The notes beneath the pieces were generated by a model. That model had not been told where the DNA came from and did not search any database. It saw only the letters and a list, made by a program, of their open reading frames with translations. 64,000 nucleotides of DNA from a bacterium. GTDB taxonomy: Bacteria; UBA6262; WVXT01. The DNA is taken from the NCBI GenBank assembly GCA_046759165.1, contig JBHIBS010000001.1:4002-68001 (forward strand). Direction: 5' to 3'. The position numbers and the translations under genes are program-made. This document shows, piece by piece, positions 3,357-49,766 of the stretch (position 1 is the first letter of the stretch; the number at the start of each line of letters is the position of its first letter).

Positions 3357-4310
3357 CTACGCAATGCCTAAATTCTGAAGGTAGCCTCGGGAACTGATGA
3401 CATCTTCTCTCAATGAGATGTCATGAGGTTCCAGTACTTTGATGGTGTGATGGTTCAAATAGGAACTAACGATTTCAAAGTTTATCTCGCCGTTTCCAGG
3501 ACTGTGATGGTCGGAAAAGCCAATTATATCATGGAGATGAATTCCCAGCAATTTGTCAGAATACTCCTTCAAAAAACTTTCATCTGAGTCTACTAAACCC
3601 AGCTTCTGGGCAACCCGAGCGTGGCCGGTATCGTGCCAATAATAAACATTCTTACCTGGAAAATGTTCCAAGATTAATCTTATCTCTTCAAAACTCGGAA
3701 TTTCATGATGGAAAAATCTATTCTCCATGCCGAGTTTTATATTGAATCTCTCTGAATAATTACTAATTTCCTCTAAGCTCTTTAGTGTATTTGAAAAGTA
3801 CACAGCCTTTTCCTTCTCCCGTCGATTGAGTACCTCCGATATCAATTTTTTACACAGACCTCTCTTTCCCTGAGCACAATAGTTAAAAATCTCTTTTGCT
3901 CGGCTTTCTATTGCTACCTCTCCTGCATGAATAACCACTGCCTCTGCATTCAAAAGATGAGCGAAATCAATGGTTCTCTTGGTAAGCTCAACTGCCTTCT
4001 TCCTCTCTTCACCATCACACGAAGAGAGGAGATAAGCACCCATAAGGGACCGACCTGATGGGACTTTAGTGAGTTTGGGGCAAAAATTATGTAAGGACAC
4101 AATTTTAATTTTTCCTTTTTTGTAAAGAACTAATATTTCATCGAGCATTTGTTCAGTCACCTCGACATTCAATTCTATTGCCGAAAATCCCATGTCTATA
4201 ATTTCTTCAACTAAGCTTTTCCCGTTCTGATATCTTTTTACATTCCAGGCAGTAGATAGAGCCAACAATGTTCTTCCCTCCAAATAATTCAGACAAAAGA
4301 CTTTAGACAC
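3357..4310 (-). CDS. Sugar phosphate isomerase/epimerase (xylose isomerase-like TIM barrel) family protein
   Basis: About 317 aa with HD/HxH metal-ligand-like motifs (WHDTGHA, HLHD); family assignment by recognition only. Confidence 0.5.
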   Translation of the reverse strand: MSKVFCLNYLEGRTLLALSTAWNVKRYQNGKSLVEEIIDMGFSAIELNVEVTEQMLDEILVLYKKGKIKIVSLHNFCPKLTKVPSGRSLMGAYLLSSCDGEERKKAVELTKRTIDFAHLLNAEAVVIHAGEVAIESRAKEIFNYCAQGKRGLCKKLISEVLNRREKEKAVYFSNTLKSLEEISNYSERFNIKLGMENRFFHHEIPSFEEIRLILEHFPGKNVYYWHDTGHARVAQKLGLVDSDESFLKEYSDKLLGIHLHDIIGFSDHHSPGNGEINFEIVSSYLNHHTIKVLEPHDISLREDVISSRGYLQNLGIA

Positions 4311-4364: not shown

Positions 4365-6398
4365 TCATCTTCCTTCCTCCTTTGCCCTTTGGTAAGCTTC
4401 AATCAGAGGCTGACTAACATTTGCTGGTGCTTCTTCATAATTGGAAAATTTCATTTTATGTTCTCCACTTCCCTTGGTCAATGAGCGGAGGTCTGTAGCA
4501 TAATTGAAAAGTTCTCCCTGCGGAACCAATGCTTTTATCACCTGTTTCTTGCCCTCACGGTTCATGCCCAAAACTCTCCCCCGTCGGGTATTTAGATCTC
4601 CCATTACACTGCCCATGAACTGCTCAGGAACAATCGCTTCCACTTCCATAATCGGCTCTAAAATAAAAGGCTGTGCCTGCTCCACCCCTCTGCGCAGTGC
4701 CATGCTACCAGCGATCTCGAAGGCTAAATTAGAAGAGTCGACTTCGTGGAAACTACCATCGTAAAGAGTCACTTTGATATCCACTACAGGATAGCCAGCA
4801 ATTACTCCCCTTTCCATGGATTGTTTAATTCCCTTCTCCACAGCGGGAATATATTGACTGGGAATTGCACCGCCAAAAATCTTATTAACAAATTCAAATC
4901 CTCTACCTTTTTCCAAAGGTTCGGTTTTAATCCAGCAATCGCCATACTGACCACGGCCTCCGGACTGTCTCTTATATTTTCCCTGAACCTTAGCAGCACC
5001 GCGAATGGTCTCCTTATAGGCAATCTTAGGTCTTCTCAATTCTACCTCCGCGCCATATCTCGTCTTGACTCTTCTCGACATAATTTCTAACTGGAGACTG
5101 CCCATTCCAGATAAAATCATTTCTTTCGTTTCTTTATTTATCTCATACTTAAGAGTAGGATCTTCACGGATGGCTGTAGATAAGGCATTGGCTATCTTCT
5201 CTTCTTCACCTTTCGATTTGGGATAGATAGCCATGTTTACGACTGGTTCCGGAAAGCTTATCTCGGGGATGGAGATCCTATTTTTTGGGTCACAGAGCAC
5301 ATCGTTCGTCCTGGTCTCCTTCAGCTTAACAACCGCGATGATCTCCCCTACCTCTCCTTCCTTCGTGTCAATACGCGTTTTTCCGCGCACAAAGGCAATT
5401 TGACCCAATCTTTCAGAGGAACCTTTGGTGTTATTAAAGACGTCCAACCCAGATGATATTTTACCTGAATATATCTTTAAGTAGTTTATTATCCCCAGAT
5501 GAGGCTCAGAAAAAGTCTTAAACACCAATGCTGAAAACGGCCCATTTGGATCAATCCTAACCTTTCTCTCTATTTCAATAGGCGAAGGTGCATACTCTAC
5601 CAGAAAGTCTAAAAGTTGACCGATGCCAATATTTCGCAACCCGGAACCACAAAGAACAGGCACGATTTTGTGCTCAATAATTCCTTTCTTGAGAGCTTCC
5701 CTCGTCTCTTCAGCGCTCAATTCTTGACCTTCCAGATACTTCTCAATCAGCGTGTCTTCTGAAGAAGCGATTACCTCGACCAATTTTTCTCTATATTCTT
5801 TAGCTTTTGCTGCCATTTCTTCGGGTATTTCCACCTCTTTTCCTTCAACTATGGCCTTGTTAATAATCAGATTAATTACTCCGGAAAACTCGTTACCGGA
5901 ACCGATCGGAATAGAGATCGGCGCAATATTGGGAGTTAATTTCTCTTTCAAACTTTCCATTACTCTATCGAAATTGACATTCTCCTTATCCATGCGGTTA
6001 ATGAAGATTATAGGTGGTTTTTTACTTTTCTGAACATATTCCCAGCTCTTTTCAGTCCCCATCTCTACACCATTAGCAGCACAAATGTTAACAATGGAAG
6101 TTTCCACAACGTAAAGAGCTCCCATCACTTCACCAACAAAATCGGCATACCCGGGAGTATCGATGATGTTAATTTTTTTATCTTTCCATTCGCAGAAGGC
6201 GATCGACGAATTGATGGAAATCTTCCTCTCAATCTCATCCGGGTTGTAATCGCAGACGGTATTGCCAGACTCTACTTTCCCTAACCTATCTATAGCCTTC
6301 GCTGAAAATAAAATTGCCTCGGCCAATTGGGTTTTTCCTGTTGACCCACTACCCACTATAGAGATATTTCTTAGATCTTCCACTTTATACTTCTTCAT
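4365..6398 (-). CDS. Elongation factor G paralog (EF-G-like translational GTPase, degenerate G motifs)
   Basis: 677 aa with EF-G domain order. P-loop GSGSTGKT is intact, but G3 reads DTPGYADF (catalytic His replaced by Tyr) and G4 reads NRMD. Not in an str-operon context. Confidence 0.8.
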   Translation of the reverse strand: MKKYKVEDLRNISIVGSGSTGKTQLAEAILFSAKAIDRLGKVESGNTVCDYNPDEIERKISINSSIAFCEWKDKKINIIDTPGYADFVGEVMGALYVVETSIVNICAANGVEMGTEKSWEYVQKSKKPPIIFINRMDKENVNFDRVMESLKEKLTPNIAPISIPIGSGNEFSGVINLIINKAIVEGKEVEIPEEMAAKAKEYREKLVEVIASSEDTLIEKYLEGQELSAEETREALKKGIIEHKIVPVLCGSGLRNIGIGQLLDFLVEYAPSPIEIERKVRIDPNGPFSALVFKTFSEPHLGIINYLKIYSGKISSGLDVFNNTKGSSERLGQIAFVRGKTRIDTKEGEVGEIIAVVKLKETRTNDVLCDPKNRISIPEISFPEPVVNMAIYPKSKGEEEKIANALSTAIREDPTLKYEINKETKEMILSGMGSLQLEIMSRRVKTRYGAEVELRRPKIAYKETIRGAAKVQGKYKRQSGGRGQYGDCWIKTEPLEKGRGFEFVNKIFGGAIPSQYIPAVEKGIKQSMERGVIAGYPVVDIKVTLYDGSFHEVDSSNLAFEIAGSMALRRGVEQAQPFILEPIMEVEAIVPEQFMGSVMGDLNTRRGRVLGMNREGKKQVIKALVPQGELFNYATDLRSLTKGSGEHKMKFSNYEEAPANVSQPLIEAYQRAKEEGR

Positions 6399-6500
6399 AG
6401 GATCTCCCTCATGTAAATTTAATCACATTGAATTTTATTTTATGACAAATTAATTTAGGTGTCAAGTTAAAAATCCATGAGTATCGCTACCGTCGTAAGA

Positions 6501-6571: not shown

Positions 6572-7291
6572 TTAGATCCCCAAGCTCAGGTTTACGCCGC
6601 CGGCGTAAGTAAGTTCATCTGCAAAACCAATCTCGCCCTTTATTGAAAGAAAAGGATAGAAGGATATTTTCCCACCTAAAAAGGGGCTAATGTCGCCACT
6701 GCTTCCCTTTCCCTTATCACCTTCCTCGTCCTTCCATCTTACCCAATTGTGAAAGAATTTCACTCCACCATAAGGTGTTACCATTCCTATTTTCTTGCTT
6801 GCCATCACGCTTCCTTGCAACTCTGTAGTATCCAATTTAAAATCATTTTCGGTGCCATTTTCTTTCGTTAGGTAAGAAGAGGAATGAGTAAGCCCCAAAG
6901 CAAAAGATACGGCTGGTAGAATAACGATGTCTCCCAACATGACATACCTTATCCCACCCCCATACAATGCGTCATCGATTTTCCCCTCATAAGAGGTACT
7001 CCCATTTTTCAATTCAGAACCTATGATTCCTGCCAAACCATAAACTTCCAGCCCCAAGGATGGTCGAATAGTAAATTTTATGTTGACTTTCTGAGAAATA
7101 TAGTCAAAAGGTGTTTCGTGGCCGGTGATAACCAGTTTAAGCTTTTGTGTTGAATGGGCATAGTAAACTTCTGTATTAAATCCTCCAATACTGGTAGGTG
7201 TCACCCAAGGCATCACTTCTGTTGCCAGCCCAAAGGAACAAATACCATAAATTAATCCAAAGCTCAAAATAAAAATTTGAGCTATTCTCAT
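6572..7291 (-). CDS. Outer-membrane beta-barrel protein (signal peptide, OmpW/OmpA-like barrel)
   Basis: N-terminal signal peptide MRIAQIFILSFGLIYGICSFGLA; alternating amphipathic beta-strand pattern with Gly/Tyr-rich segments. Confidence 0.55.
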   Translation of the reverse strand: MRIAQIFILSFGLIYGICSFGLATEVMPWVTPTSIGGFNTEVYYAHSTQKLKLVITGHETPFDYISQKVNIKFTIRPSLGLEVYGLAGIIGSELKNGSTSYEGKIDDALYGGGIRYVMLGDIVILPAVSFALGLTHSSSYLTKENGTENDFKLDTTELQGSVMASKKIGMVTPYGGVKFFHNWVRWKDEEGDKGKGSSGDISPFLGGKISFYPFLSIKGEIGFADELTYAGGVNLSLGI

Positions 7292-7333: not shown

Positions 7334-7452
7334 CCCTGGCGATGTCCTACTCTTCCATACCGTTACCAGTACAGTACCATCAGCGCTGGAGGCCTTAACT
7401 TCTGTGTTCGGGATGGGAACAGGTGTTTCACCTCCGCCATAATCGCCAGGGG
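7334..7452 (-). rRNA. rrf: 5S ribosomal RNA
   Basis: Reverse complement reads CCCTGGCGATTATGGCGGAGGTGAAACACCTGTTCCCATCCCGAACACAGAAG...GGAAGAGTAGGACATCGCCAGGG, a canonical 5S. Confidence 0.9.
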
Positions 7453-7479
7453 AAAACGTTTAATAAAATCAAATAGTAT

Positions 7480-10565
<3,086 letters not shown>

Positions 10566-10719
10566 TACTACTTAATTTTACTCGACGATATATTGAATCC
10601 ACCTGCATAATAGCAGGGTACCCTTTATTTGTCAAAGAGCAAATAAATATAAGAAACAAAATGTAAGTGAAAAATTCTCCCCACTTACACCCTATATCTT
10701 TCTACTTGTCTTTTTTATC

Positions 10720-10795
10720 TGGTGGAGAATACCGGACTTGAACCGGTGACCTCCTCGGTGCAAGCGAGGCGCTCTCCCAACTGAGCTAATTCCCC
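10720..10795 (-). tRNA. tRNA-Ala (anticodon UGC), CCA encoded
   Basis: Reverse complement GGGGAATTAGCTCAGTTGGGAGAGCGCCTCGCTTGCACCGAGGAGGTCACCGGTTCAAGTCCGGTATTCTCCACCA. Confidence 0.93.
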
Positions 10796-10891
10796 ATGTA
10801 GATGCGCAGAATATTTCTTAACTTATAAACTGGGCCAGACCCACAAAAAAGGCAGATGAAGGAAACGAGTTCTCACTTACCCCTGCCTCTT

Positions 10892-10968
10892 TGGTGGGCC
10901 TTTCTGGGTTCGAACCAGAGACCTCTACCTTATCAGGATAGCGCTCTAACCAACTGAGCTAAAGGCCC
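10892..10968 (-). tRNA. tRNA-Ile (anticodon GAU), CCA encoded
   Basis: Reverse complement GGGCCTTTAGCTCAGTTGGTTAGAGCGCTATCCTGATAAGGTAGAGGTCTCTGGTTCGAACCCAGAAAGGCCCACCA. Confidence 0.93.
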
Positions 10969-11090
10969 TTTCTGAATTGACCTAAGATTTATATAGTTAA
11001 TATAAACTTTTTCTTATATAACTGAGCCTTTTAGCCTCCTATTAACATTTATTAAAATTAAATAGGAGCTGAAGCCAAAAACCCTGAAAT

Positions 11091-12691
<1,601 letters not shown>

Positions 12692-12768
12692 GGAAATTTA
12701 CTCAACACCTTGAATTGACCAGGGTTATCTGGCTCCAATGCTCCTATTTTGATTTCAAAGAACTAACC

Positions 12769-19573: not shown

Positions 19574-20254
19574 TTACTTACTGGCGGCTCTCCTCTGAGA
19601 GAGGTCGCACAATTTGCGAAGATTCTCAATTGCTTTCCTGGGATTGGGTGAGCCGAAAATATACTCACCAGCGACCAGAATATTTGCGCCGCTATCTATT
19701 GCGGACTGCGCAGTTTCAAGATTGATTCCACCGTCAACTTGAATATCTACATCGAGTCGACTTTTTAAAATGTAGTCCCGGAGCTGAGCAATCTTGGGTA
19801 AGACAGAACTAATGAACGTCTGCCCCCCATAGCCCGGCTCTACTGTCATCAACAGGGCCATATCGATTTGATTTAAGTGCTCCAACAAAGACTCAATGGG
19901 CGTCTGGGGATTGAGAGCCACTCCAACTTCCAATCCCTCCTTTTTAATTGCTTTAATTTCCTCTCTAAGATTAATACAAGCTTCTGAGTTAACTGTAATA
20001 ATTTTTGCTCCAGCCTGAGCAAAGACAGATATAAATTTCTCAGGATTCTCTATCATCAGGTGGACGTCGAGTGGAAGTTTGGTTATCCCCTTTATGGAAC
20101 TGACGACCCTAGGTCCAAAGGAAATATTGGGAACGAAGTGACCATCCATAATATCGAGATGTAACATATCAGCTCCCGCTTCTTCTATAAGCGAAATCAA
20201 CTCCTTTAAGTTAGTAAAGTCGCAGCTTAGAATAGAAGGAGCAATCCTAATCAC
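19574..20254 (-). CDS. rpe: Ribulose-phosphate 3-epimerase
   Basis: IAPSILSCDF...LHLDIMDGHFVPN...DVHLM TIM-barrel signature. Confidence 0.93.
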   Translation of the reverse strand: MIRIAPSILSCDFTNLKELISLIEEAGADMLHLDIMDGHFVPNISFGPRVVSSIKGITKLPLDVHLMIENPEKFISVFAQAGAKIITVNSEACINLREEIKAIKKEGLEVGVALNPQTPIESLLEHLNQIDMALLMTVEPGYGGQTFISSVLPKIAQLRDYILKSRLDVDIQVDGGINLETAQSAIDSGANILVAGEYIFGSPNPRKAIENLRKLCDLSQRRAASK

Positions 20255-21270
20255 AATTCTATCTCCTCTACCAGAATACTGTTAACAAATATTCTCGCTT
20301 TTGCTTTCCCCAAAACTTGTATGGGCAATGAAATCTTCGTCCCAGGAGAATGCATTTTATGGTACACTTCCCTTTCACCTTGGCCATCCACTACCACAAT
20401 GAGAACATCCTTATCTAAAACTCCCTGGGAAACCTCATAATATATCATTGCTTCACGGATTATTTTGTGCACTGCGCTTTTCTTTGCTACAGTTACTTTG
20501 ACTATAGTATCTTCATCGATGATTTCATCCCAGTGAGGTTCTTGTTTTAAAATAGTCCCTTCGGGAACGTTATCATTTACAGTTTCTTTAATTTCACCTA
20601 GGGGTAAATTCATATCTCGCAATATCTTCCGGGCGCTGCGAATATTTTGGCCAAGCAGATTGACCATTAAAGGCACCTCTGCTTCTCTGGCTGGACCAAG
20701 ACTTACTACCAGATTAATCATGCTTCCCCTAGCAACGATCTCTTCAGGTGAAGGATCTTGCGCTATTACAAAGTCTTTTTTTATCTCCTCCGAGTAAATT
20801 CCTGTCTCCTCGCCCAGAACCAATCCTGCCTGACGGAGGAGAATCTTTGCCTCGCGTAGAGACTTCCCTACAAGCTGAGTAACGAAGATAACCTGACCGC
20901 CAGAACTAACGGTAACTTTAATAACTTTTCCTTCCTTCACTACCGACCCTGGCAGCGGCTCCTGGAAAATAATACTGCCATCTGGTATATTCTCATTATA
21001 TTGTTCACCAACTTTCTTAATATATAAGTCCTGGTCACTTAAAATCTGGAGAGCCTGCCCCACAGTCTTTCCGGTCAGATCAGGAACCATAACCTCTTTC
21101 TTCTGATGAACAACTACCCCCATCAGTTGGTTGAAGATGAGAATTCCAAATACTATAGAGGCGGAAGTAGCCAGAATGAGCTTAATAAATTTTTTTATCC
21201 CCTGTTGGAGAGAAAAAAAACCAAGTAAGATAACAGAAATTAGAATTAGAATCCCTAATATTACTTTCAT
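20251..21270 (-). CDS. PASTA-domain protein (N-terminal TM helices plus three or four PASTA repeats, no kinase domain)
   Basis: Repeats of about 65 aa (VPDLTGKTVGQALQIL..., VTQLVGKSLREAKILL..., VPLMVNLLGQNIRSARKIL...) typical of PASTA. No Ser/Thr kinase motifs are present. Confidence 0.7.
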   Translation of the reverse strand: MKVILGILILISVILLGFFSLQQGIKKFIKLILATSASIVFGILIFNQLMGVVVHQKKEVMVPDLTGKTVGQALQILSDQDLYIKKVGEQYNENIPDGSIIFQEPLPGSVVKEGKVIKVTVSSGGQVIFVTQLVGKSLREAKILLRQAGLVLGEETGIYSEEIKKDFVIAQDPSPEEIVARGSMINLVVSLGPAREAEVPLMVNLLGQNIRSARKILRDMNLPLGEIKETVNDNVPEGTILKQEPHWDEIIDEDTIVKVTVAKKSAVHKIIREAMIYYEVSQGVLDKDVLIVVVDGQGEREVYHKMHSPGTKISLPIQVLGKAKARIFVNSILVEEIEL

Positions 21271-45320: not shown

Positions 45321-47498
45321 CTAGGTCCTCTCACGATTTTCTTCCCAGATGGGTAGGAAGATAGTAAACTTGGTTCCTTTCTCTACTTCGCTCTCTACAT
45401 TTATTTCCCCATTGTGGTCTCTTATTATACGATAAGCCATTGACAATCCCACTCCTGTTCCTTTGGAGCCCTTGGTGGTAAAGAAGAGGTCGAACAGTTT
45501 ATCTAGGTTCTCTTTAGAAATTCCGCAACCATTATCTGCTATTGTTATCTCGACCTTTTCCGGATTATCTTTTCCAGCACTTGCTGAAATGGTGAGTTCT
45601 CCTTTCTTACCAGCCATCGCCTCGCAGGCATTTATAATCATATTCAAAAAGACCTGTTCCAGCTGGACACCAATCCCTTTTATCTTGGCCAAATCTTGGG
45701 GAATATCTTTACTTACATTAATACCTCCCCGAGAAATTTGATACTGTGCTAAGCCCAGGGCATCTTCCATTACAGAATTCAAGTCTGTCGGCAGAAAGTC
45801 CCTATCAGAAGGTTTAGCATAGCCCCTTATCCTCTGGATGAGCTTAGCCGCCCTGTGAGCAGTCTCCACCATCTTCTCCTGTCTGTCCCTTATGGTTTGC
45901 AGGATTTCTTTCTCCCTTTCAGTCAGATTTGCTTGACTGAAATCTTCCTTTATGTCACGGATGCACAACTCAGCGCCCATACTGACAATGGCTAAAGGGT
46001 TATCTATCTGATGGGCAAAGCCAGCAGCCAACTCCCCAACGGAAGAGAGCCTAGCCGCCTGAATCATTGTCGCTTGAGACTCTTTAAGTTCCTGATAGAA
46101 TTGAGCATTCTCAATCGCTAAAGCAGCCTGCCCGGCTAAAATCTTAAACATGTCTAAATCGTCAGGCGTATAAATCTCTTTGGAGCGCTTTGTACCCAAC
46201 ACTAAAAAGGCAGTCAGCTCTTCACCGATGAAAGCAGGCAATAATAGAGATGCCCCCATACTTCTCAATTGTGTTTCCACTTCTCCCAGGTGTTCTCGCT
46301 CGCTGGTCTGAAAATGGCTGATAACTTCCTCTTTCAAAATAGGTCCTCTATCTCTACTTCTGGATAGTATCTGAATTAAAGGAGCATCTTTAGATAGAGA
46401 ATCTCCGACCTGTTTTCTTCTCTCTTTGCCATAGCGAATCTCCCGCACATATTGATTGGTTCTCTTATCCCATAGATAAATGCGGGCATGACTGATTCCG
46501 ATTTCCTTCGTCACATCACGAATGATTAAAACCAAAAGGCTCCTTAGATCTTTGGTCAAAGTCATTTGCTTTGCCAAGTTTATTAAGTTTTGTTGGTATA
46601 TCCTTTGCTTCTTTAAAAGGATTCTATTAGCTCTCTCCTGGAAGTAATGACTTATGGTAGGAGCAACAAAAGCGAGTAATTCACACCCAGCCACACCAGC
46701 TGGCACAAGCCACCAATAAGTACCAAAGTACCGATATAAAAAAGGCCGATGAAGAACAAGAAGTAACGGTGGAATTCCTAAAAAGATAGAGTAAACGGTT
46801 GTAAATATCGCCGTCTTAGTGACCGCCGCGGTAATATCCATCAGCCGCGTCGTAATGATTGCATAAGTTATTATAATAGGATATAAGAAAACTAAATAAT
46901 GACCAAATGGAAATATCGGGATATTATAAATCAATGGATAGTTGGTCGCTCCTCCACCGAATCCAATAATAGAAGCTAACAAGATATATCTTATCTGGTT
47001 ACGCTTGTACCCAGAGACCTCTTTATACTTTGTGAGCATAATATAAATAGAATAGACAACGCACGAAGAGAATGTTAAAAGGAAGAAGTGGTACACGACA
47101 CCAGGTTGCGGATAATACCTAAAGGAAAGCTTAGGGACTATGTCTTTAATAAAGAAAGGAGTCAAATTAAAACTTAGAAGGACTAGACCGATTAAGTAAA
47201 CGCATTTAATTAATCTTTTCCGTTTCTCTCGGAGATCCAAAAACGAATGAACAAAATCGAGAAAAAATACAGGAATCAAAGTAGCACCAGAATAAAGAAC
47301 TCGTGTCCAAAATAGAGCTTTCCCCTTGTCAATCGAGAGCAACAACATAAAATAGGCAAATCCCCAAATAAATATGCTCATGCTTAACAAGCACCATATT
47401 TTGTTTGTAAATTGTTTTCTATTCTTAAAATATACGAATAATCCAAGAATTAAACCGATTATTGCGGTTATTAAACATGATAGTGCAAAGTACATCAA
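45321..47498 (-). CDS. Sensor histidine kinase: multi-TM N-terminal domain, GAF, HisKA, HATPase_c (no cognate response regulator adjacent)
   Basis: About seven hydrophobic helices in the first 280 aa; GAF-like region; H-box ELAAGFAHQIDNPL; N/G1/G2 boxes (NACEAM, DNGCGI, GSKGTGVGL). Its stop abuts the murB start, and its start is 3 nt from the DUF362 stop. Confidence 0.85.
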   Translation of the reverse strand: MMYFALSCLITAIIGLILGLFVYFKNRKQFTNKIWCLLSMSIFIWGFAYFMLLLSIDKGKALFWTRVLYSGATLIPVFFLDFVHSFLDLREKRKRLIKCVYLIGLVLLSFNLTPFFIKDIVPKLSFRYYPQPGVVYHFFLLTFSSCVVYSIYIMLTKYKEVSGYKRNQIRYILLASIIGFGGGATNYPLIYNIPIFPFGHYLVFLYPIIITYAIITTRLMDITAAVTKTAIFTTVYSIFLGIPPLLLVLHRPFLYRYFGTYWWLVPAGVAGCELLAFVAPTISHYFQERANRILLKKQRIYQQNLINLAKQMTLTKDLRSLLVLIIRDVTKEIGISHARIYLWDKRTNQYVREIRYGKERRKQVGDSLSKDAPLIQILSRSRDRGPILKEEVISHFQTSEREHLGEVETQLRSMGASLLLPAFIGEELTAFLVLGTKRSKEIYTPDDLDMFKILAGQAALAIENAQFYQELKESQATMIQAARLSSVGELAAGFAHQIDNPLAIVSMGAELCIRDIKEDFSQANLTEREKEILQTIRDRQEKMVETAHRAAKLIQRIRGYAKPSDRDFLPTDLNSVMEDALGLAQYQISRGGINVSKDIPQDLAKIKGIGVQLEQVFLNMIINACEAMAGKKGELTISASAGKDNPEKVEITIADNGCGISKENLDKLFDLFFTTKGSKGTGVGLSMAYRIIRDHNGEINVESEVEKGTKFTIFLPIWEENRERT

Positions 47499-47500
47499 TT

Positions 47501-48643
47501 TTATACCACCGATAATTTCACACTCAGATAATTTACGACGTGTTTTAGGGAGGGAGGACAGCCCTCTAAGTGCTCTACATTATTCTTTTTACACCATTCT
47601 TGTGCACAATCTCCTATGCCTATGCATTTACCCATTCGCGAGACGTCCAATCCATGGCAGTTTCCAAATACTACATCTGTTCTGAATAAATGTGACCTCG
47701 TAAAGAGGGAGAAACTGGGAATAAATTTTCTTTTTATTTCTTTGCCTGCTCTATCAAGGTTGATGATGCACCTCGAACATGCACTAGTCGGCCAAATGTA
47801 TAGTTTTTTTCCCTTTAGAATAAACCTTGTAGCCGGGACGAATTTGACCATTCTGTCTTCATTCTCTCTGATTTTACTCTCCTGGACAAATTTTCCAGCC
47901 CCAATATTTTCTGCTATACAAATATGTTTTACACGTGAATAGTCTAGTCCTATCATCGCCGCCGCAAACGAATCAATCTCAACCATATCGTCACCACAGA
48001 AGACCAGATTTGCTGTTCTATCCTTACCATGATGTGGTCCATTTTCTTCCATTCCTGTAATGCCTTCTATCATATTTAGGGTTGGCTTAATAATTTCTCC
48101 TAGATACGCAATATATCTATCCAAATCCAGCTTGTGCATCTGGAGCTTATTAACCGACGGTAACACCCCCATTTGGTTTTTCAGGGATAGTGTTACTCCT
48201 GTTTCCATATGCGTCTTAAGCTTCGCTAGGTTAATGTAGCTGTCGACTTCAGTCAAAATTTCAGGTATCATAAAGGTTATTTGCTTACATTTTACCTTCC
48301 TCCTTTTGGCCTTGTCTAAATTTAAAAGGGTTACTCCTCTAAGAGAGGCGAATTGTTGAAAATTAGAAAGTTTAAGGATTCGTTCGAAAGGATAAGGCTG
48401 TTCAGGAGTTCCTATGAGAGAAGTATGTCCAATTATAACTTTACAGTTTCTTCCTAACAAAAAGGCAAGCAGTTCTTTCATAAAATTCGCATCGGTATTT
48501 TCACTTTTATAAATTGGGACTCTACCTCCCAAGTTTGGCTTGATAAAAATCTTGCCCCTAGGTTTGAACCCCATCTTATTGAAAAGGCTTTCAACATGAC
48601 TTCTCAGATCTCCTCCGCCATACTTTTCTAAGAGGACAGCCAT
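47501..48643 (-). CDS. DUF362 domain protein with Cys-rich C-terminal extension
   Basis: IFIKPNLGG and AKLKTH core typical of DUF362; C-terminal CSRCIINLD...CHG...CIGIGDCAQEWC...C cluster. Confidence 0.6.
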   Translation of the reverse strand: MAVLLEKYGGGDLRSHVESLFNKMGFKPRGKIFIKPNLGGRVPIYKSENTDANFMKELLAFLLGRNCKVIIGHTSLIGTPEQPYPFERILKLSNFQQFASLRGVTLLNLDKAKRRKVKCKQITFMIPEILTEVDSYINLAKLKTHMETGVTLSLKNQMGVLPSVNKLQMHKLDLDRYIAYLGEIIKPTLNMIEGITGMEENGPHHGKDRTANLVFCGDDMVEIDSFAAAMIGLDYSRVKHICIAENIGAGKFVQESKIRENEDRMVKFVPATRFILKGKKLYIWPTSACSRCIINLDRAGKEIKRKFIPSFSLFTRSHLFRTDVVFGNCHGLDVSRMGKCIGIGDCAQEWCKKNNVEHLEGCPPSLKHVVNYLSVKLSVV

Positions 48644-48878: not shown

Positions 48879-49766
48879 CTATGTAGAAAAAGTCTTGGGT
48901 ATTTGCGATAGGTTCGATATTTTGTCCATGACCTCATCTGCCATTTTTTGCAATGTATTTTTACTGGTCTTTTTGCCGAAGTACTTATTTAGAAAAATCT
49001 GCTCACCTATGCGGACTTTACACCTGCGAGAAAGACGGGGAAAAGGCACATCTCTCGGGAATACATCAAATGTCCCTGTAATGCCCACAGGGATTATTGG
49101 GACCCTTGCTACTATTCCAAGTTTTACAAATCCTAGTTTCCCTCTCTGAATTTTTCCATTTATAGATCTACTTCCTTCCGGGAATATTACTACCACTTTA
49201 TTTTGCTGCAAAATCTTCACTACTTCTCTAAAATATTTTACTCCAGGTTCTTCTCTGTCCAAGTAAATCCTCTCGTTATATCTCATAAACCATCTTAAAA
49301 TCGACACTCGATGTAATTCCCGTGCTGCCAAAAAATATAATCTTCTTCTTATTACAGCAGATATAATAAAGAAATCAAGATAACTAGCGTGATTTGCCAC
49401 AATGATAGCACTATCTAATTTCGGCACACTCTCTATACCTTCTACTTCCCGTATCCAAAAAAGATAAAGAATTGCCCTTACTATTGGCTTTGTTAACAGA
49501 TAAAAGACTCTTACGAGTAGTGGAGTTCTACGGTCAAATGCCCTGCGTTCGGATTTTGATCTCCTGTCGAGGAAATCGATCTCTATTTTTTTGACCCTTC
49601 GTTCCTTACGTCTACGTTCCCTTTGTTTACGGCTGTTCATGTATACATTTTGCTTCTGATAAGGGTCTTCAATCAACCTATGTTTAATTTTATAACTTGC
49701 AAAATTACCCAGCATCTCGTCATCTTTAGTATACATTTTGCCAAGAATGTGCCAGATTTTGCCCAT
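48879..49766 (-). CDS. Lysophospholipid (1-acyl-sn-glycerol-3-phosphate) acyltransferase family protein, PlsC-like
   Basis: HxxxxD motif in IVANHASYLDF and FPEGSRS motif. A TM helix precedes the domain. About 80 aa of Arg/Lys-rich N-terminal sequence has an uncertain start. Confidence 0.8.
   Translation of the reverse strand: MGKIWHILGKMYTKDDEMLGNFASYKIKHRLIEDPYQKQNVYMNSRKQRERRRKERRVKKIEIDFLDRRSKSERRAFDRRTPLLVRVFYLLTKPIVRAILYLFWIREVEGIESVPKLDSAIIVANHASYLDFFIISAVIRRRLYFLAARELHRVSILRWFMRYNERIYLDREEPGVKYFREVVKILQQNKVVVIFPEGSRSINGKIQRGKLGFVKLGIVARVPIIPVGITGTFDVFPRDVPFPRLSRRCKVRIGEQIFLNKYFGKKTSKNTLQKMADEVMDKISNLSQIPKTFST

Follow-up and report, generated by a model that had tools for sequence, protein, structure and literature searches.

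The window (the whole 64-kb stretch of DNA that was analysed, 64,000 nucleotides) contains a minus-strand open reading frame that begins with an ATG at 6398, ends in a stop codon at 4365–4367 and encodes an EF-G-like protein of 677 residues, which carries the NCBI product name 'elongation factor G'. A plus-strand reading of the same interval was ruled out, as its translation is riddled with stops. On the minus strand this gene, referred to here as the EF-G2 gene, comes last in a series made up of 16S rRNA, tRNA-Ile, tRNA-Ala, 23S rRNA, 5S rRNA and an ORF of 239 residues (Table 1). A preliminary description of this DNA had placed it downstream of an rRNA operon and an OMP gene, and this order is correct, although the OMP match is a weak one. 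Other neighbours of the EF-G2 gene in the window are an AP_endonuc_2 gene, yebC and ruvCAB, and the remainder of the 64 kb is occupied by housekeeping genes and the dcw cluster. Two long contigs of the same clade show the order Rho, rrn, a 240-residue ORF, EF-G2, YebC and RuvCAB. The 239-residue ORF is a conserved neighbour of EF-G2 in this clade; the association is positional. The DNA comes from an uncultured lineage whose MAGs carry a Clostridia label; the names of the isolates point to marine sediment.

We also inspected the region upstream of the EF-G2 gene. A candidate promoter sits about 40 nucleotides before the ATG, with a ribosome-binding site between the two, and no Rfam family was found at the gathering threshold in the 173-nucleotide upstream region.

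Table 1 Features of the EF-G2 locus, with positions numbered along the 64-kb window.
Feature	Position	Strand	Basis or remark
rRNA operon: 16S, tRNA-Ile(GAT), tRNA-Ala(TGC), 23S, 5S	7334..12694	minus	directly upstream
239-aa ORF, hydrophobic N-terminus, weak OMP beta-barrel match	6572..7291	minus	PF13505, E 0.0026, below cut-off
Candidate sigma-70-like promoter TTGACA-17-TAAAAT, 11/12 matches	6437..6465	minus	consensus scan only
Ribosome-binding site GAGGGAG	6404-6410	minus	sequence upstream of EF-G2 ATG
EF-G2 / EFG II-type EF-G paralog CDS	4365..6398	minus	ORF, Pfam and NCBIfam profiles, EFG II signature residues
G1 / P-loop GSGSTGKT (canonical AHIDAGKT)	6330..6353	minus	1dar alignment, family frequencies
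G2 / switch I ERKISI (canonical ERGITI)	6213..6230	minus	1dar alignment, related loci, Margus 2011
G3 / switch II DTPGY (canonical DTPGH)	6147..6161	minus	1dar alignment, homologs, loci, codons
G4 NRMD (canonical NKMD)	5988..5999	minus	1dar alignment, homologs, codons
G5 region CGSGL (canonical GSAL/F)	5637..5651	minus	1dar alignment, related loci
Domain IV loop I KYKRQSGGRGQYG	4941..4979	minus	1dar alignment, homologs, related loci, Margus 2011 Table 2
Domain IV loop II GSFHEVDSS, conserved translocation tip	4731..4757	minus	1dar alignment, related loci

The EF-G2 protein matches the Pfam families GTP_EFTU, EF-G_D2, EFG_III, EFG_IV and EFG_C and comprises five domains, G with its G' subdomain, II, III, IV and V. 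It aligns with Thermus thermophilus EF-G (1dar) over nearly its whole length (HMMER, E 3.8e-187, residues 3–667 against 6–689), and this alignment sets all of the GTPase motifs unambiguously. The P-loop retains GxxxxGKT, in agreement with the preliminary description, with His20, Ile21 and Asp22 lost. In switch I the Arg and Ile are retained and the Mg-coordinating Thr is replaced by Ser. The position of the catalytic His in switch II is taken by Tyr84 (codon TAT, 6147–6149), and the HMMER alignment to 1dar offers no His that could be aligned there, which confirms that the gene encodes an EF-G paralog with the catalytic His replaced. In G4 the Lys is changed to Arg (codon CGC, 5994–5996) and the guanine-reading Asp is kept. 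The main determinant of guanine specificity in NKxD motifs is the Asp, not the Lys. Thus the Lys-to-Arg change pointed out earlier is real, but its description as a change at the guanine-specificity residue does not hold, since the main determinant is retained. The G5 region reads GSGLRNIG where 1dar has GSALKNKG, and the acidic patch of G' is present. In domain IV, loop I (KYKRQSGGRGQYG) bears additional basic residues typical of EFG II, and both tip loops (KYKRQSGGRGQYG and GSFHEVDSS) are near-invariant in relatives.

To classify the protein we used the criteria for EFG II given by Margus, Remm and Tenson in 2011 (PMC3150367), namely their Tables 1 and 2, the indel regions and the variants of G2. 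The type I signature residues of that work, in 1WDT numbering Gly16, Leu25, Ser61, Thr291, Gly333 and Lys/Arg352, are all present (6/6), as G19, L28, S64, T316, G360 and K379 in T. thermophilus EF-G1 numbering. Among the seven conserved type II positions (D216, V250, L264, K471, K472, E513 and G603 in 1WDT numbering; PMC3150367), five are identical in the EF-G2 protein (V258, L272, K498, E543 and G633 in EF-G1 numbering) and the other two carry conservative changes, D216 (D224) to Glu and K472 (499) to Arg; Arg at position 499 is also found in 80 of 115 relatives. The EFG II proteins have lost the RGITI sequence of G2, and a Clostridia subgroup has RxxSI, with Ser for Thr (PMC3150367), a variant that the RKISI of the EF-G2 protein fits. 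Furthermore, the indel hot spots of EFG II lie in region III, the G' subdomain, and region VI, the linker between domains I and II (PMC3150367); relative to T. thermophilus EF-G1 the EF-G2 protein has gaps of 8 residues in G' and 13 residues in the domain I–II linker. Like other EFG II genes, the EF-G2 gene lies away from the str operon (rpsL-rpsG-fusA-tuf). Judged by these residues, motifs and indels, the gene is intact and belongs to a family known before, the second EF-Gs of EFG II (EF-G2), and the earlier view of it as a paralog rather than a canonical fusA is borne out by the EFG II signature and by the location outside the str operon.

Profile scores give the same picture. The EF-G2 protein scores higher with NF009381 (915.5 bits) than with TIGR00484 (714 bits), and T. 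thermophilus EF-G-2 ranks the two models in the same way (808 over 489 bits). True EFG I proteins rank them oppositely, with TIGR00484 above NF009381 for both T. thermophilus EF-G1 (1156 and 884 bits) and E. coli EF-G (1297 and 811 bits). The EF-G2 protein does exceed the TIGR00484 cut-off of 659.4, but its 714 bits lie 440–580 bits under the 1156–1297 of true EFG I, and this cut-off fails to separate little-diverged EFG II members from EFG I. Indeed, the protein resembles canonical EF-G the most, at 45.8% identity and 627 bits; T. thermophilus EF-G-2 reaches 36.8% and 482 bits, and mycobacterial EF-G2 (9k0z) 434 bits. Within EFG II, these comparisons place it among the little-diverged, EF-G-like members.

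We also scored the protein against models of more distant types. The actinobacterial type of EF-G2 was ruled out (NF009377, 572.1 bits against a cut-off of 890), as was the Bacteroidetes type (NF058620, EFG2_Bacteroid, 610.3 against 1000), for which the best stretch covered residues 1–498 only. The suggestion, made in the preliminary description, of a ribosome-protection factor of the Tet type, or the related reading as another EF-G-like GTPase (BipA, LepA or RF3), can draw on homology at the superfamily level, and the PDB entry that the switch II segment matches best is 7uvp, deposited as 'TetQ'. However, the scores stay far under the cut-offs, with 342 against 775 bits for tet_protect, 234 against 1100 for TetM/W and 192–235 against 900–1425 for the more specific Tet models; BipA (167 against 757), LepA (129 against 534) and RF3 (197 against 473) fare no better. 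With full EF-G domains III to V and domain IV loops of the EF-G type also in place, a Tet-type identity falls away and any membership of these families is scarcely credible.

We then asked how the unusual residues are distributed among relatives. At the catalytic position (87), 106 of 115 homologous proteins have Tyr and 9 have Phe, and at 83 related loci from at least 8 phyla the residue is Tyr in 59, Phe in 19, Ala in 4 and Asp in 1; His was found in none of the 115 proteins and none of the 83 loci. Loss of the catalytic His, usually to Tyr, is a fixed trait across EFG II. Since the His is replaced in every EFG II relative examined, the odd motif is a hallmark of the family and not the sign of a new kind of factor, and what had first looked like an unusual prediction is universal in the family and already visible in 1WDT. 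Likewise, the Arg at the G4 Lys position occurs in 63 of the 115 close homologs, so that NRMD is no special feature of this protein. Within the clade, DTPGY is present in all of about 40 sequences (83–100% identical) and NR[MI]D in nearly all; the P-loop reads GSGSTGKTQ, again without His, and G2 is mostly ERKISI, with one DRKISI and one EREISI. The codons vary, TAT or TAC for the Tyr and CGC, CGT or AGG for the Arg, and this synonymous turnover indicates that both residues are under purifying selection. Conservation of DTPGY throughout the clade in spite of synonymous change also means that the motif is due neither to chance nor to sequencing error.

The same data bear on whether the gene might be a decaying duplicate, an incipient pseudogene with a degenerate GTPase centre. 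Several residues of the catalytic centre are indeed replaced, as such decay would predict. In contrast, the frame of 677 codons is intact, the protein is 84–88% identical across genera whose 16S identity is about 95%, a level comparable to that of RuvA, RuvC and YebC, and the substituted residues are kept while their codons change synonymously, the same substitutions being fixed in many phyla. We give the idea of decay next to no credence.

No second EF-G or EF-Tu was found within the 64-kb window by tblastn with the EF-G2 protein; the window is a small fraction of the genome, so that the absence of fusA from it says little. In the clade, the 10-kb flanks of EF-G2 on two contigs (156 kb and 80 kb) contained no str operon and instead carry queH, spoIID, queA, tgt, yajC and secD. 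At 84 related loci, 1.3 Mb in total, tblastn with T. thermophilus EF-G1 found no EFG I gene beside the paralog and gave only weak, unrelated GTPase matches.

These observations matter for a more radical reading, in which the EF-G2 protein is the sole EF-G of its lineage and carries out translocation and recycling without the catalytic His. The protein does pass the TIGR00484 equivalog cut-off (714 against 659) and bears the 'elongation factor G' product name, its synteny is kept in every clade genome seen with an identity like that of housekeeping proteins, and the window holds no further EF-G. However, the gene is outside the str operon, its TIGR00484 score is well under that of true EFG I, and 64 kb is too small a share of the genome for the lack of fusA there to weigh. 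Moreover, Margus and colleagues found in their survey that a lone EF-G gene was invariably EFG I and that EFG II never came without a further EF-G (PMC3150367). We consider this reading very improbable, and with it the prospect, equally slim, that a sediment-dwelling, Clostridia-like lineage may lack EFG I or rely chiefly on a His-less EFG II. If true, routine elongation and recycling would proceed without histidine-activated hydrolysis, as a way to save energy in translation where starvation is chronic, and EFG II would occur on its own, contrary to the published rule.

We instead favour, with a probability of roughly 60%, the view that the EF-G2 protein is an accessory translocase, slow or uncoupled from hydrolysis, that would serve under low-energy or stress conditions. 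In this proposal, which is drawn from sequence features, the protein would bind GTP and take the normal factor-binding site on the ribosome; the elements of GTP binding that it retains are the GxxxxGKT of the P-loop, DxxG, the Asp of N[K/R]xD and the acidic G' patch, together with the switch I Ser at the Mg2+-coordinating position. Domain IV could then drive tRNA–mRNA translocation. Without the His, GTP hydrolysis activated by the SRL might be slow, absent or mechanistically changed, and the His, Ile and Asp of the P-loop that face the SRL are replaced as well, like the catalytic His. Translocation by EF-G2 would then be slower at little or no GTP cost, or the factor might dwell longer on the ribosome. 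Such a factor would probably act as an accessory under energy limitation or stress, beside a canonical EF-G whose gene would lie at another place in the genome.

What is new here is one more well-conserved EFG II member; the family and its loss of the His were known. About 200 relatives from many phyla have no His at the catalytic position, which marks the trait as fixed. To our knowledge, no member of the little-diverged, EF-G-like part of EFG II has been studied. The EF-G2 protein, which keeps the Arg and Ile of switch I, the acidic patch of G' and the tips of domain IV, is a candidate of modest value for biochemistry, and this conservative background could help to settle how His-less factors work and could bear on whether translocation free of hydrolysis is a widespread means of saving energy where nutrients are scarce.

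We compared the EF-G2 protein with characterised proteins. With canonical EF-G (EFG I, fusA; 1DAR and E. coli) it shares the five-domain architecture at 41–46% identity, the acidic G' patch and the domain IV tips, which are identical in the two, whereas AHIDAGKT, RGITI and DTPGH are all changed and the gene lies outside the str operon. With T. thermophilus EF-G-2 (1WDT, 2DY1), which reads DAPGYGDF at switch II, it shares the signature, the Tyr in place of His and the Gly and Leu of the P-loop; in domain IV, T. thermophilus EF-G-2 has the family's KK in loop I, and loop II is SYHEVDSS there and GSFHEVDSS here. T. thermophilus EF-G-2 differs in keeping the P-loop His (GHAGSGKT), in its G4 motif TKLD and in switch I, which is more degenerate (HRTTV). 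Intrinsic and ribosome-dependent GTPase activity and translocation are reported for this protein, despite the Tyr.

Mycobacterium smegmatis EF-G2 (9K0Z, 9K10), with Tyr98, is reported to bind GTP, to have minimal ribosome-dependent GTPase activity, to lack recycling activity and to play a regulatory role associated with stress, and in M. smegmatis EF-G1 the H88Y mutation almost abolishes GTPase activity. Following what has been proposed for the mycobacterial protein, the EF-G2 protein might act on ribosomes as a regulator under stress or as a sequestering factor, and not as a working translocase; it would bind 70S or 50S with GTP, away from the sarcin-ricin loop, and would damp or protect translation without hydrolysis. 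The two proteins share the Tyr for the catalytic His and a P-loop (GPSGGGKT in M. smegmatis) without His, Ile and Asp, and Atkinson 2015 questions whether EF-GII serves mainly in translocation. The window protein, however, is much less diverged than its far more diverged mycobacterial counterpart (NF009377, 572 bits against the cut-off of 890), and it keeps the switch I Arg and Ile that M. smegmatis EF-G2 has lost. Strict conservation of the domain IV tips across the family would also be hard to explain without a function in the decoding centre, and both T. thermophilus and Bacteroides thetaiotaomicron EF-G2 are reported to translocate. A purely regulatory role is in our view unlikely, if a serious contender. 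The preliminary description had likewise suggested a ribosome-binding regulator, for which the stress-related role reported in mycobacteria gives some ground, but its wording 'rather than a translocase' runs against the conserved domain IV tips and the two translocating relatives.

The accessory translocase that we favour finds its closest parallel in B. thetaiotaomicron EF-G2 (fusA2, BT2167; 7UVP, 8DMF), which is reported to support translocation that is slow or independent of GTP, to have no GTPase activity and to be induced under carbon limitation. Like the window protein, this EF-G paralog lacks the catalytic His and stands outside the canonical role. It has Ser (DCPGSDDF) where the window protein has Tyr, and the G2 motif of Bacteroidetes EF-G2 is YGYSV (Margus 2011, PMC3150367) as opposed to RKISI. 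The three characterised EF-G2 proteins thus disagree on whether Tyr or Ser abolishes ribosome-dependent GTP hydrolysis, and because of this disagreement neither an impaired GTPase nor a translocase role can be read from sequence alone. The hydrolysis-impaired factor predicted at the outset is in line with the little or no GTPase activity of M. smegmatis and B. thetaiotaomicron EF-G2, but T. thermophilus EF-G-2 hydrolyses GTP with a Tyr at the same position. Among these known systems, B. thetaiotaomicron EF-G2 is in function the nearest analogue of a translocase that saves energy.

The EF-G paralog is a single minus-strand open reading frame of 677 codons beginning with an ATG at 6398, and translation of the plus strand of the same interval gave stops throughout. 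Pfam recovered a complete EF-G architecture (GTP_EFTU, residues 8-272; EF-G_D2; EFG_III; EFG_IV, residues 457-576; EFG_C), and the closest solved relative, T. thermophilus EF-G (1dar), aligned nearly end to end (E 3.8e-187). Alignment to 1dar confirmed the motifs named in a preliminary description, which had left the strand unstated, at the places reported. In this alignment the protein reads GSGSTGKT for the canonical AHIDAGKT in G1, RKISI for RGITI in G2, DTPGY for DTPGH in G3, NRMD for NKMD in G4 and GSGLRNIG for GSALKNKG in G5. The catalytic His is lost, as are the His, Ile and Asp of the P-loop that face the sarcin-ricin loop. The nucleotide-binding scaffold is kept (P-loop, DxxG, the Asp of N[K/R]xD, and the switch I Arg and Ile), counting within it a Ser that stands for the Mg-coordinating Thr. 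Also kept are the acidic, L7/L12-contacting G' patch and both domain IV tip loops, SGGRGQYG and SFHEVDSS, which are essentially canonical and carry the additional basic residues characteristic of EFG II.

Feature by feature, the sequence of the window protein matches EFG II, the second-copy EF-G subfamily of Margus, Remm and Tenson 2011 (PMC3150367), who defined its type I and type II signature positions. When it is aligned by MAFFT with the EF-G1 and EF-G-2 of T. thermophilus and the EF-G of E. coli, it shows every one of the six type I residues (Gly19, Leu28, Ser64, Thr316, Gly360 and Lys379, T. thermophilus EF-G1 numbering), and five of seven type II positions are identical, with the other two replaced conservatively. 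The G2 motif carries the RxxSI variant given for the Clostridia sub-subgroup of EFG II, and deletions of 8 aa in the G' subdomain and 13 aa in the domain I-II linker lie at the two indel hot spots of the subfamily (PMC3150367). Score ranking with the NCBIfam models NF009381 and TIGR00484 also puts the protein with EFG II (915.5 and 714 bits, against 808 and 489 for T. thermophilus EF-G-2, 884 and 1156 for T. thermophilus EF-G1, and 811 and 1297 for E. coli EF-G). The TIGR00484 cut-off of 659 is formally exceeded because the protein belongs to a little-diverged part of EFG II, and this accounts for the public annotation 'elongation factor G'; Margus et al. placed the little-diverged EFG II of Clostridia and deltaproteobacteria near the root (PMC3150367). 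The proposed paralog status thus holds by signature residues, G2 variant, deletions and profile ranking, and the gene adds a new, uncharacterised member to the known EF-G2/EFG II family.

On the minus strand the paralog follows Rho, 16S, tRNA-Ile, tRNA-Ala, 23S, 5S and a 239-aa ORF, and precedes a sugar-phosphate isomerase/AP_endonuc_2-type gene, yebC, ruvC, ruvA and ruvB. The order from Rho to ruvB recurs in 156-kb and 80-kb JGI contigs of the clade of close relatives, and in both it runs on through queH, DUF2905, spoIID, queA, tgt, yajC and secD. Upstream of the paralog are a candidate sigma-70 promoter, TTGACA-17-TAAAAT, near-consensus by motif match, and a GAGGGAG ribosome-binding site; with these predicted elements, expression need not rely on read-through from the rRNA operon. 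The other 50 kb of the window holds ordinary housekeeping genes in a Firmicutes-like arrangement (rplS-trmD-rimM, rpe, rsmB, fmt, priA, coaBC, gmk, ileS and the mraZ-to-ftsZ dcw cluster). Neither a str operon nor an EF-Tu nor a second EF-G was found within the 64-kb window or identified beside the EFG II paralog in 84 related loci. That the window protein is the only EF-G of its genome is very improbable, because Margus et al. (PMC3150367) found every solitary EF-G to be EFG I and EFG II always alongside another EF-G, and because the paralog lies outside the str operon.

Coordinates of features in the window and in related loci
Feature	Sequence	Position	Strand	Remark
AP_endonuc_2 / xylose-isomerase-like TIM-barrel gene	window	3357-4310	-	directly downstream of EF-G paralog
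EF-G paralog	window	4365-6398	-	677 aa
239-aa ORF	window	6572-7291	-	starts 42 nt past 5S rRNA; hydrophobic N-terminus
23S rRNA gene	window	7478-10564	-	3087 nt
PASTA ORF	window	20251-21270	-	339 aa; between rsmB and rpe
7TM-GAF histidine kinase and DUF362 protein	window	45321-48643	-	725 aa and 380 aa
Acyltransferase ORF	window	48879-49766		
23S insertion	L084	2916-3610		~695 nt
ORF in 23S insertion	L084	3029-3547	+	172 aa
EF-G-like GTPase	L068	6780-8243		Bacillota MAG
EF-G-like GTPase	L072	6779-8242		Bacillota MAG

In L068 and L072 the EFG II gene has this second, shorter EF-G-like GTPase ~2 kb upstream of it; the G domain of the shorter protein is ~40% identical to T. thermophilus EF-G1. 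The 239-aa ORF has a weak, sub-threshold match to an OMP beta-barrel (PF13505, E 0.0026), with 67-82% identity within the clade but only 28% in L007, the next relative; an outer-membrane-type product would be unexpected for MAGs labelled Clostridia. The AP_endonuc_2-type gene is present in loci L006, L083 and L084 (75-80% identical) and gave no match in L001-L005 or L007 (tblastn, E 1e-10), and this neighbour may be variable within the clade. The 23S gene is ~160 nt longer than the 2925-position Rfam model. The insertion in the 23S of L084 (JGI Ga0315314_1000188, same clade), absent from the window gene, falls at window-LSU position 2106/2107 and its ORF has the LAGLIDADG-like motif LAGFIEGEGSF; it probably represents a homing-endonuclease-bearing intron in a bacterial 23S rRNA. 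Firmicutes usually carry the PrkC kinase and its phosphatase between rsmB and rpe; the ORF found there has three PASTA domains, and no kinase domain was detected in it. The histidine kinase, DUF362 and acyltransferase genes sit between murC and murB in an otherwise canonical dcw cluster.

Among the matches listed from a search of 5.8 billion proteins, ~40 sequences form a tight clade (83-100% identical). GS/GGS[T/S]GKT and DTPGY occur in all that include the N-terminal G domain, and NR[M/I]D in nearly all of these. Across eight clade loci from GTDB genomes and two long JGI contigs, the codons switch synonymously, between TAT and TAC for the catalytic-position Tyr and among CGC, CGT and AGG for the G4 Arg. 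Between clade members at ~95% 16S identity the paralog is 84-88% identical, compared with 84-90% for RuvA, RuvC and YebC and a slightly higher 91-92% for RuvB and Rho. These sequence patterns argue that the gene is functional and constrained, and that its substitutions are selected rather than accidental.

The window protein would bind GTP and dock at the ribosomal factor site, its domain IV would enter the decoding centre and promote translocation, and GTP would be hydrolysed slowly, not at all or by another route. Functional evidence from characterised EF-G2 relatives is mixed. T. thermophilus EF-G-2, which has Tyr, is described as having intrinsic and ribosome-dependent GTPase activity and supporting poly(Phe) synthesis at a rate slightly below that of EF-G1. 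The B. thetaiotaomicron protein is described as lacking GTPase activity, sustaining slow or GTP-independent translocation, being strongly induced on carbon limitation and being required for gut colonisation. M. smegmatis EF-G2 has minimal GTPase activity and no ribosome recycling, and was assigned a stress-regulatory role. By analogy with the latter two proteins, and with H88Y in EF-G1, which nearly abolishes ribosome-dependent GTPase activity (2026 preprint, M. smegmatis), the proposed GTPase impairment is plausible. Because domain IV is conserved and the protein only mildly diverged, our preferred reading is an accessory translocase with poor GTP hydrolysis, serving under low-energy conditions (probability roughly 0.6). 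A non-translocating regulator ranks below this and seems unlikely: the claim that the protein acts 'rather than as a translocase' is unsupported, given the conserved domain IV loops and the translocation described for the T. thermophilus and B. thetaiotaomicron proteins, and the suggestion of a ribosome-protection protein does not hold. For the accessory translocase, an energy-limited habitat would fit, as the names of the clade MAG sources suggest hydrate-ridge and cold-seep bins.

The catalytic position holds Tyr in 106 and Phe in 9 of 115 full-length homologs, and Tyr in 59, Phe in 19, Ala in 4 and Asp in 1 of 83 related loci (one further, incomplete locus was left out of this count), with His in neither set. 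The loci span Clostridia and Tissierellia, Elusimicrobia, Nitrospirota, Methylomirabilota, Acidobacteriota, deltaproteobacteria, Actinomycetota and Armatimonadota. The G4 Lys-to-Arg change is also common (63 of the proteins, 20 of the loci). A missing catalytic His is, as these alignments indicate, a hallmark of the EFG II family, so that the absence described for the window protein stands and its implied unusualness, like that of the G4 Arg, does not. Known systems share the trait: T. thermophilus EF-G-2 (1WDT) has DAPGYGDF at G3 and TKLD at G4, B. thetaiotaomicron EF-G2 (7UVP) has DCPGSDDF at G3, and in M. smegmatis EF-G2 Tyr98 replaces the catalytic His88 and is directed away from the gamma-phosphate (2026 preprint); with these precedents and the family-wide loss, the preliminary description therefore rediscovered a known family trait.
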